From Candidatus Vogelbacteria bacterium RIFOXYD1_FULL_46_19 (lineage in GTDB: Bacteria > Patescibacteriota > Minisyncoccia > Phycocordibacterales > XYD1-FULL-46-19), in contig MHTK01000004.1 in NCBI GenBank assembly GCA_001824825.1, positions 1 through 61,503 of the forward strand: 61,503 nt of DNA. The letters run 5' to 3'. Under the pieces are notes generated by a model. It was not told the DNA's origin and searched no databases. It was given only the letters and a program-made list of their open reading frames with translations. The first letter of the stretch is position 1. Each line of letters begins with the position of its first letter. This document shows, piece after piece, positions 24,642 through 54,850 of this stretch. Position numbers and translations under genes: made by a program.

Positions 24642-24711
24642 AAAATTGGTAGTTAGTTAAATACACTTCCTCCCCCGAGAAGTGACCAATCGTCTCCCGT
24701 TGGGGCGATGG

Positions 24712-24751
24712 AGCACCAGAACACCTTCCACTGTTGTTCTGGTGCTTTTTT
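24712..24751 (+). terminator. Rho-independent terminator after trxB
   Basis: AGCACCAGAACA...TGTTCTGGTGCT plus a T run. Confidence 0.75.
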
Positions 24752-24798
24752 ACCTTAAGAGTACTTGATTTTTATCAATAAGGCGCTAAACTAAAAAA

Positions 24799-24912
24799 GA
24801 TCCCCCGACATCACGTCTGCCTAGGGGGGATTCACCTCAGGTCAAGACTTCCCCGCCTTGACCACCGTCGGAACCAACCCTTCCCTAAAAGAAGGTTCCG
24901 GCGGCTTTTTTT
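24799..24912 (+). ncRNA. Candidate small structured RNA (unidentified)
   Basis: TTGATT-16-TAAACT upstream (24765-24792), three hairpins, ends in a T run, no ORF. Confidence 0.3.
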
Positions 24913-25023
24913 GTGGGGGATAGAGGACTCGAAACTTACAGTTTCAGTACAGGTTGTCGATATTTTCATACCAAAGGTCTCTGAAAATATCTGACTAACC
25001 TTTTCAAGTCCTCTATCTGCCAC
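24912..25023 (-). repeat. tRNA-anchored mini-element (class A) tailored to tRNA-Val
   Basis: Minus strand: GATAGAGGACTTGAA, AGGTT..AACCT-GTAC, GAAACT-GTA-AGTTTC, AGTCCTCTATCCCCCAC. Confidence 0.85.
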
Positions 25024-25077
25024 CCAAAATATAAAAAGCTGGAAACTTTAGGTATTCGCTTCCAGCTTATTATTTTG

Positions 25078-25151
25078 TGGGCGATACAGGACTTGAACCT
25101 GTGACCTTCTCAACGTCAATGAGACGCTCTAGCCAACTGAGCTAATCGCCC
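25078..25151 (-). tRNA. tRNA-Val(GAC)
   Basis: GGGCGAT/ATCGCCC acceptor, TCTCA-TTGACGT-TGAGA, GGTTCAAGTCC. Confidence 0.95.
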
Positions 25152-25421
25152 TATTTTATTTACAGATGAAACCGAGGAACTAATTCCGTCAATCTCCGCT
25201 AGTAAACCTAGTTATCATAGCCACCTTATCATAAAATAATTTCCTTAGGAAGAGTCATCCTACTTGCGACTAATCCATTTTTAACTTAAAATTCCTCCTT
25301 GCCTAATTGGATAAAAATGATAAAGTAATTAGAGATTTTTAGACCCCGTGACCCCTGTGATGGGTCCCGGGTCCTCCGCCGAAGCCCCCGACTCTCGGCG
25401 GAGGTTTTTGTTTGAGGAATA

Positions 25422-54697: not shown

Positions 54698-54850
54698 TGC
54701 GGAGGATGAGGGATTTGATTCCTACAGAATCTGTTCAGGTTGACGATATTTTTCTTCTCTAATTCGAAAAATATCAGGCAACCTTTTCTAATCCCTCCTT
54801 CCGCTTGGCGGAACCGCCCCACAGGCGGCCTCCGCAAAAAAGCTTGCGGA
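54698..54850 (-). repeat. Class-A mini-element tailored to a tRNA-Ser but with no tRNA beside it
   Basis: Minus strand: TCCGCA-hairpin-TGCGGAGG[hairpin]GGAGGGATTAGAA, AGGTTG..CAACCT, GATTCT-GTA-GGAATC, AAATCCCTCATCCTCCGCA. Confidence 0.8.

Follow-up and report, generated by a model that had tools for sequence, protein, structure and literature searches.

Behind the tRNA-Val(GAC) gene studied here lies a short cassette whose core stands between two copies of the tRNA 3' end, one inverted and one direct. Both copies, or arms, differ from the tRNA at the same position, and the two still pair with each other. The initial annotation of this locus read the pattern as a compensatory change, in which both arms had moved away from the tRNA. 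The question, then, is whether the arms changed together to preserve their pairing, or whether the base that they share reached them by some other route.

Anatomy of the Val unit

The window (61,503 nucleotides) corresponds to contig C4 in a Patescibacteria genome (G000) of 708 kb and 99% completeness. Coordinates are given on the + strand of the window, and the elements are ordered in the sense of the tRNA, which lies on the minus strand.

25077..25151, minus strand: tRNA-Val(GAC), called by ARAGORN and scored at 70.5 bits by the Rfam tRNA model; its T stem is ACAGG/CCUGU, and pair 50:64 is C:G (bases 25101 and 25087).
25036..25068, minus strand: terminator-like hairpin right behind the tRNA, AAGCUGGAAGC, an 11-nt loop, GUUUCCAGCUU, then a U run.
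~25002..25025, minus strand: antisense arm, an inverted copy of the tRNA 3' end, with C at the equivalent of position 64 (base 25013).
24951..25001, minus strand: core helix, AGGUUAGUC...GACAACCU around the inner hairpin GAUAUUUUCA...UGAAAAUAUC, with a variable loop (from fold and covariation).
24931..24950, minus strand: invariant GUAC linker, then the small hairpin GAAAC-UGUAA-GUUUC (from alignment A1).
24914..24933, minus strand: sense arm, a direct copy of the tRNA 3' end, UUCGAGUCCUCUAUCCCCCA, with C at the equivalent of position 64 (base 24923).
24865..24911, no strand assigned: hairpin behind the sense arm, GCCGCCGGAACC...GGUUCCGACGG; the + strand reads as a terminator with a T run.

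The 3' part of tRNA-Val(GAC) is GGTTCAAGTCCTGTATCGCCCA, and the stretch compared with the arms is GTCCTGTATC. The antisense arm starts 51 nt past the tRNA on the same strand, with only a hairpin in between; read in the tRNA sense it is the reverse complement of TTCAAGTCCTCTATCTGCCA, and its own reverse complement is given as TTCAAGTCCTCTATCTGCCACCC. The sense arm, TTCGAGTCCTCTATCCCCCA in the tRNA sense (24914-24933), carries its own A57G and an uncompensated G69C. Inverted and direct copies of the tRNA 3' end thereby flank the cassette core, and the 3' strand of the GAAAC-UGUAA-GUUUC hairpin doubles as the start of the T-loop copy in the sense arm. Both inverted repeats and folds join the terminator-like hairpin and the antisense arm into a long palindrome with the tRNA 3' end. 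A consensus terminator scan found no match here, because the hairpin loops are longer than its 8-nt limit.

The hairpin at 24865..24911 shares 78% identity over 41 nt with the trailer and terminator of the tRNA itself, to which it is homologous. Since the direct repeat of tRNA end and terminator is no better preserved than this, the Val unit is old; judged by this divergence, it is older than most units, in which the sense arm equals the tRNA exactly. A 128-nt segment of the locus folds at -51.6 kcal/mol, with z = -7.9 relative to shuffled sequences, on either strand. Rfam, including RtT (RF00391) and tRNA-like RNAs, returned only the tRNA itself above threshold, and nothing credible on 24905-25032 even at E <= 10.

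Other structured segments lie nearby. GC-rich, hairpin-rich stretches with CCCCG motifs and terminator-like hairpins at their ends occupy 24770-24911, 24660-24750 and 25340-25410, and the segment right behind the sense arm resembles a class-B core without an antisense arm of its own. At 24700-24722, a weak third tRNA-Val-like 3' end (GTTCTGGTGCTCCATCGCCCCA, minus strand) overlaps the terminator of a TrxB-like gene.

The core belongs to a family of tRNA-trailing cassettes

Related genomes carry the same core behind Leu, Trp, Gln, Ile, Ala, Asn, Ser, Cys, Tyr and Val tRNAs, and each time the arms match the local tRNA and its trailer. We built a covariance model (R1) from 26 units (alignment A1); of 61 related genomes searched, 32 gave hits, to a total of more than 200 copies, 10 of them in the genome studied here, and the Val unit scored 95 bits. 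These tRNA-trailing structured cassettes of Patescibacteria, GTAC...TGTAAG core class, form a family that is apparently undescribed and is defined from this analysis alone: the literature searched yielded no description of it, and it is unmatched in Rfam.

Across the 26 units, 88.9% of the cells of the core helix are paired, and 16 of its 18 pairs have changed on both sides. The small GTA-loop hairpin is 99.2% paired, and its pair 91:99 occurs as four Watson-Crick types and one U.G. Shuffled and slid controls score far below the core helices. The invariant GTAC and TGTAA motifs are present in the conserved core of the Val unit. The proposal that the arms close this core into a multi-way junction stands as anatomy, in that we recovered a three-way junction with strong covariation; the part of it that invoked selection on the arms is not supported. 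In other units the arm helix is usually just 9-14 bp long, and the position-64 pair forms its outer edge, paired in 19 of 26.

Several further copies and likenesses came to light. An orphan, partly decayed core copy lies at 54706-54799 of the window (minus strand, 76 bits), with GAAC for GTAC and TGTAGG for TGTAAG; its sense arm is tRNA-Ser-like (TCAAATCCCTCATCCTCCGCA), and ARAGORN finds no tRNA upstream. Behind tRNA-Gln(CTG) in G019:C1 (L005) and tRNA-Asn in G050:C24 (L034), whole units, comprising trailer, antisense arm, core and sense arm, stand in near-identical tandem behind one tRNA, an arrangement that could reflect either successive insertions into the displaced sense arm or unequal crossing-over. 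Elsewhere in G000, on the minus strand of C6:33600-33700, there is a conserved tRNA-like 3' end, GCGAG TTCGATT CTCGC TAGGTCCA, which might pair over 7 bp, as an acceptor stem, with a GGATTTA some 55 nt upstream; ARAGORN calls no tRNA there, and a 21-mer of the region recurs in G009, G010, G012, G025 and G029.

A single base divides the tRNA from both arms

We confirmed that both arms differ from the tRNA and yet pair perfectly over an 11-bp inverted repeat: positions 24919-24929 read GATAGAGGACT and positions 25007-25017 read AGTCCTCTATC (the arms compared as GTCCTCTATC / GATAGAGGAC). The repeat sits within arms of 28 nt that are 82% complementary and 67 nt apart. By sequence homology of both arms to the tRNA 3' end, it is no chance match. 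The difference falls at tRNA position 64, which is C in both arms and G in the tRNA (bases 24923, 25013 and 25087), and which pairs with position 50 in the T stem of tRNA-Val.

Over the first 15 nt, the tRNA (T) reads TTCAAGTCCTGTATC, the antisense arm (A) TTCAAGTCCTCTATC and the sense arm (S) TTCGAGTCCTCTATC. The three copies form a series in which T and A are separated by one change and A and S by one more, with A as the intermediate: a single G/C substitution divides the tRNA from both arms, and the other change is private to S. On an unrooted tree, one substitution splits T from A and S, so no double event is needed, and the position of the root decides. A compensatory double change is therefore unnecessary as an explanation, and is probably wrong. 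Decay is also evident in the Val unit, as the uncompensated G69C in the sense arm and as indels after ATC in the antisense arm.

The same decay raises the alternative that each arm gained its C independently, by a G-to-C change during the neutral ageing of an old unit. The direct repeats have diverged by about 20%, and at that divergence about 0.27 identical coincident changes would be expected in the 20 sites of the Val unit. However, the first 15 nt are otherwise near intact (one private change in S, none in A), indicating that local divergence is low, and G to C is a transversion. Independent mutation would, moreover, have happened to arrive at what is a natural allele of the tRNA. We consider such a coincidence very unlikely.

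No recurrent co-evolution of the arms across the family

We compared tRNA, sense arm and antisense arm in a three-way table of 80 units with both arms, which gave 941 comparable sites. A alone differed at 54 sites and S alone at 20; the arms agreed against T at 3. With 74 single-arm changes against 3 shared ones, paired substitution across homologous loci gives no sign of recurrent arm-arm co-evolution.

The three shared sites are position 64 of the Val unit and position 67 of the Ala(TGC) unit, both in this genome, and a T-loop base of tRNA-Met in G039. Inspection by eye added one more T-loop case, in a Val(TAC) unit from a metagenome (L082), where one of two apparent shared sites is ambiguous and falls in a deletion. 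The Met and L082 cases are single T-loop changes, which need no compensation. In the Ala(TGC) unit (G000 C6:47632-47705 and trailer), the arms have A at acceptor position 67 where the tRNA has G, and pair 6:67 is polymorphic (CG, CA, TA, TG) among the tRNA-Ala genes of relatives. Because this site, too, lies at a pair that varies in relatives, we count it in favour of a natural allele as the source of the shared base.

Coincident independent mutation predicts about 0.5 shared sites family-wide where 3 were observed, a comparison that we enter under coincidence. If the tRNA evolves several times more slowly than its dead copies, a few sites at which S equals A are predicted, enough for those seen. 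The observed number does exceed the expectation for coincidence, which leaves room for some linkage of the arms.

These counts bear on true compensatory evolution, in which function would depend on the arm helix, either in folded RNA or in an attachment site of single-stranded DNA, and selection would favour the complementary change in one arm after the other had mutated. The position-64 pair does belong to the usually kept part of the helix (of 26 units, 19 pair at alignment columns 4:110 and 20 or more at the inner 7 pairs), and the full-length fold pairs the antisense arm with the sense arm while keeping the tRNA cloverleaf. Nevertheless, changes in a single arm that break pairing outnumber shared changes by 74 to 3, and the fact that both arms copy the local tRNA fully accounts for their covariation across units. 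Within the Val unit itself, neither G69C nor the indels of the antisense arm have been compensated. The arm helix also contains 16 G.U against 20 A.C cells, with 28% of cells non-Watson-Crick, unlike the core helix (21 G.U against 9 A.C). The arm helix thus shows no bias of G.U over A.C and its decay looks neutral; the core is unlike it. We judge selection on the arm pair to be highly improbable as the source of the shared C. The view that the arms are more than decaying duplicates of the tRNA was not borne out, given G69C, the indels and the single-arm changes across the family; nor was the view that both had changed under selection, since there is no G.U excess, few changes are shared, and C64 is itself a natural allele.

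The arms might instead have been templated from each other without selection: a G-to-C change in one arm would have been copied into the other by intramolecular template switching at the quasi-palindrome, or by fold-back copying. Hairpins are documented to arise and persist through template switching in the absence of selection (PMC8794818, PMC7202029). The Val arms form an imperfect palindrome around a 67-nt spacer, in which the perfect block is exactly 11 bp and ends at a wobble in one direction and at a mismatch in the other, as expected of a short conversion tract. Long terminator-centred palindromes that copy a tRNA 3' end and its trailer with high fidelity abound here (Arg-CCT, Gly-CCC, Phe, His), and their frequency in this genome indicates that palindrome-making replication errors are evidently active. 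Templating would also accommodate shared changes slightly above chance expectation. On the other hand, mismatches only 7 nt and 5 nt away were left unconverted, and homogenisation is not the rule: among the sites that distinguish S from the tRNA, A agrees with the tRNA at 20 and with S at 3. The converted base would, in addition, have to be by coincidence the one natural 50:64 allele of the nearest tRNA relatives, when a rough count puts natural variants at only about 7 of the 45 single changes that the 15-nt block allows. Templating is, in our estimate, unlikely, yet still a rival to be taken seriously. We also tried a crossover mosaic model, in which A equals S to the left of a crossover and the tRNA to the right; it fits Val, Ala and, in part, L082, and fails generally.

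The shared C corresponds to a natural tRNA-Val allele

The initial annotation had allowed that the arms might match a different tRNA-Val isoacceptor exactly, and thus be copied from another gene. We found no such tRNA in this genome: GTCCTCTATC is absent from all tRNAs of the 99%-complete assembly, and another resident tRNA was accordingly rejected as the source of the arms. In close relatives, however, the match exists. Val(TAC) of the GGGCGAT type in G021 and G030, in the closest genus, ends in TTCAAGTCCTCTATCGCCCA, which equals the first 15 nt of the antisense arm exactly; G030 also has the TrxB most similar to the one here outside this strain population (about 73%). The tRNA-Val(GAC) of G025 equals that of G000 at 73 of 75 bases, and the sole difference is pair 50:64, which is G:C in G025 (CCTCT). 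Consistent with this, 19 of 20 positions of the sense arm agree with the common allele TTCGAGTCCTCTATCGCCCA, against only 17 of 20 that agree with its own tRNA.

Among distinct Val(GAC) genes in an unbiased collection, we counted C50:G64 in 26 and G50:C64 in 8. The state of 50:64 varies among members of a single genus, and it is always paired. From these tRNA genes, the C64 of the arms is a genuine tRNA-Val allele. An earlier impression that all relatives carry CCTCT, and that the resident tRNA must have flipped, was discarded: that sample was biased, having been picked by similarity to the arms, and the unbiased count is the one of 26 C:G to 8 G:C. A tRNA-Leu unit as the origin of the CCTCT of the arms is less likely, as the nearest cores are Val(GAC) units (58/58 positions).

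Within one genus, the tRNA-Val(GAC) genes of L046 (G025:C54) and L053 (G012:C7) differ at 10 positions, and tRNA-Ser(CGA) of the same two genomes is only 73% identical; G025 tRNA-Val(GAC) differs at only 2 positions from that of G000, which belongs to another genus. This pattern hints at lateral exchange of the tRNA-Val gene or of its 3' end.

Origin of the arms and polarity of the change

Our preferred explanation, offered with modest confidence, is descent of both arms from the 3' end of a tRNA-Val with the natural G50:C64 allele. In this view, the Val unit is a rather old member of a group of gene-less structured cassettes that is widespread directly behind tRNA genes in Patescibacteria, and the C shared by its arms would be the state of a tRNA-Val 3' end with the T-stem pair G50:C64. 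Three routes could have led to the present arrangement. In the first, the resident tRNA later flipped its own 50:64 pair, so that any compensation would have taken place between tRNA positions 50 and 64. In the second, the cassette arose at a different tRNA-Val allele or isoacceptor and brought its arms along to this gene. In the third, the cassette was imported together with its arms from a relative.

The following bears on the polarity of the change and on the choice among these routes, both of which are inferred. Most Val(GAC) genes of the family share C50:G64 with the G000 tRNA. It is also found in the tRNA-Val(GAC) of the two relatives whose TrxB is the most similar (73%), which have no cassette there and a different local arrangement; the named TrxB homologues come from Vogelbacteria/Paceibacterota-like genomes. 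Given the majority state and that of these two relatives, the first route would require a flip and a flip back in this lineage. Five distant Patescibacteria with the same Val-associated core have G64 in both the tRNA and the sense arm, and in the antisense arm of 4 of the 5, where that arm reaches so far. If the arms were inherited along the lineage of the core, then the C would be derived in the arms. The core is mobile: in very distant Patescibacteria lineages, its conserved blocks in Val(GAC) units agree at 58 of 58 positions in Parcubacteria OLB19 (L076), at 56 of 58 in L077 and at 57 of 58 in a Saccharibacteria MAG (L080), and it occurs behind many tRNAs, so that arrival with pre-formed arms is plausible. 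Together, C50:G64 in relatives and G64 in the distant units favour either a cassette that arrived with arms made on a C64 end, or arms that truly changed.

Pattern scans of public genome and metagenome contigs found no closer relative with this Val unit, only distant Val units. Contigs with an identical or 99%-identical TrxB carry a Val unit that is identical base for base. Two observations stand apart from the question of polarity. In L076, the direct repeat covers the whole tRNA tail and terminator, about 54 nt. Assemblies of the present population (Logan contigs L121 and L122, and L119) break in or at the edge of tRNA-Val (~25107-25116 and 25149), probably because the tRNA or its repeats are common to co-occurring strains.

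Arrival of the cassette with its arms admits another reading. Integron attC sites and the attP hairpin of CTX phage are single-strand recombination sites that act in folded form; there, two inverted segments of one strand fold into a target-like duplex, as the two arms do here. The arms could together make up a folded single-strand site for attachment or guidance that travels with the cassette, its two halves obliged to stay complementary to each other but tolerant of one mismatch to the target. They would have been made for a C64 tRNA-Val end, and the cassette would have landed, or persisted, at a gene with G64. The arms would then be an element-borne targeting sequence, as opposed to copies of the target site, and the C would be kept by the constraint of pairing or by template-switch repair. 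Unlike attC and CTX-phage attP, however, the Val unit offers a resemblance only: we found no recombinase, excised form or strand bias of the arm helix. We hold this reading to be quite unlikely. A related idea, in which the antisense arm serves as a primer-binding site complementary to the mature tRNA and its CCA, was rejected, as the antisense arms run on into the genomic trailer.

Comparison with known systems

Descent of the arms from a tRNA-Val 3' end invites comparison with the attL/attR duplications that integrative elements leave, and with the CIMEs, derivatives of such elements that lack genes. Williams is said to have distinguished, in 2002, T-loop and acceptor sublocations among attL/attR duplications of tRNA 3' ends. 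These systems, like the Val unit, have a direct repeat of the tRNA 3' end in which one copy completes the gene and the other is displaced downstream; the repeat likewise reaches into the trailer, and tandem stacking occurs here as well (G019 Gln). In attL/attR, a donor allele can be betrayed by mosaic differences of the displaced copy from the gene copy, as it may be here. A feature expected of tyrosine-integrase elements is present at Val, namely the direct repeat of the tRNA 3' end (41 nt, 78%, including trailer). In contrast to attL/attR elements, the insert is only about 150 nt and contains neither an integrase nor any other gene: the roughly 150 nt between the repeats are non-coding. The cassette further differs in its extra, inverted copy of the tRNA end and in its conserved, covarying, RNA-like core. 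No integrative element is known to have these two features.

Quasi-palindrome mutation by template switching (PMC8794818, PMC7202029, PMC5941160) resembles the Val unit in that it also involves imperfect inverted repeats whose arms are made complementary by replication errors; its outcome mimics compensatory change and needs no selection. It differs in being a mutational mechanism and not an element family, and the family counts here are without general homogenisation of the arms. Compensatory pair replacement in tRNA stems offers a further parallel: in relatives, tRNA-Val 50:64 is either C:G or G:C, and it is exactly there that the tRNA and its fossil copies differ. Such compensation acts between positions 50 and 64 of the tRNA, however, and not between the arms of a cassette.

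Implications

If selection kept the arm pair at tRNA-Val, this locus would be the first direct sign of a functional arm-arm helix in tRNA-trailing cassettes. Our data instead point to an ordinary cause: the arms keep a different natural allele of tRNA-Val, and across the family they behave as decaying copies. The arms are thus not continuously homogenised with the resident tRNA, and they may be used as fossils of earlier or donor tRNA alleles, or of cassette transfer. Finally, the core is under structural constraint and the arm helix that closes it is not, which narrows down where the function of these cassettes is to be sought.
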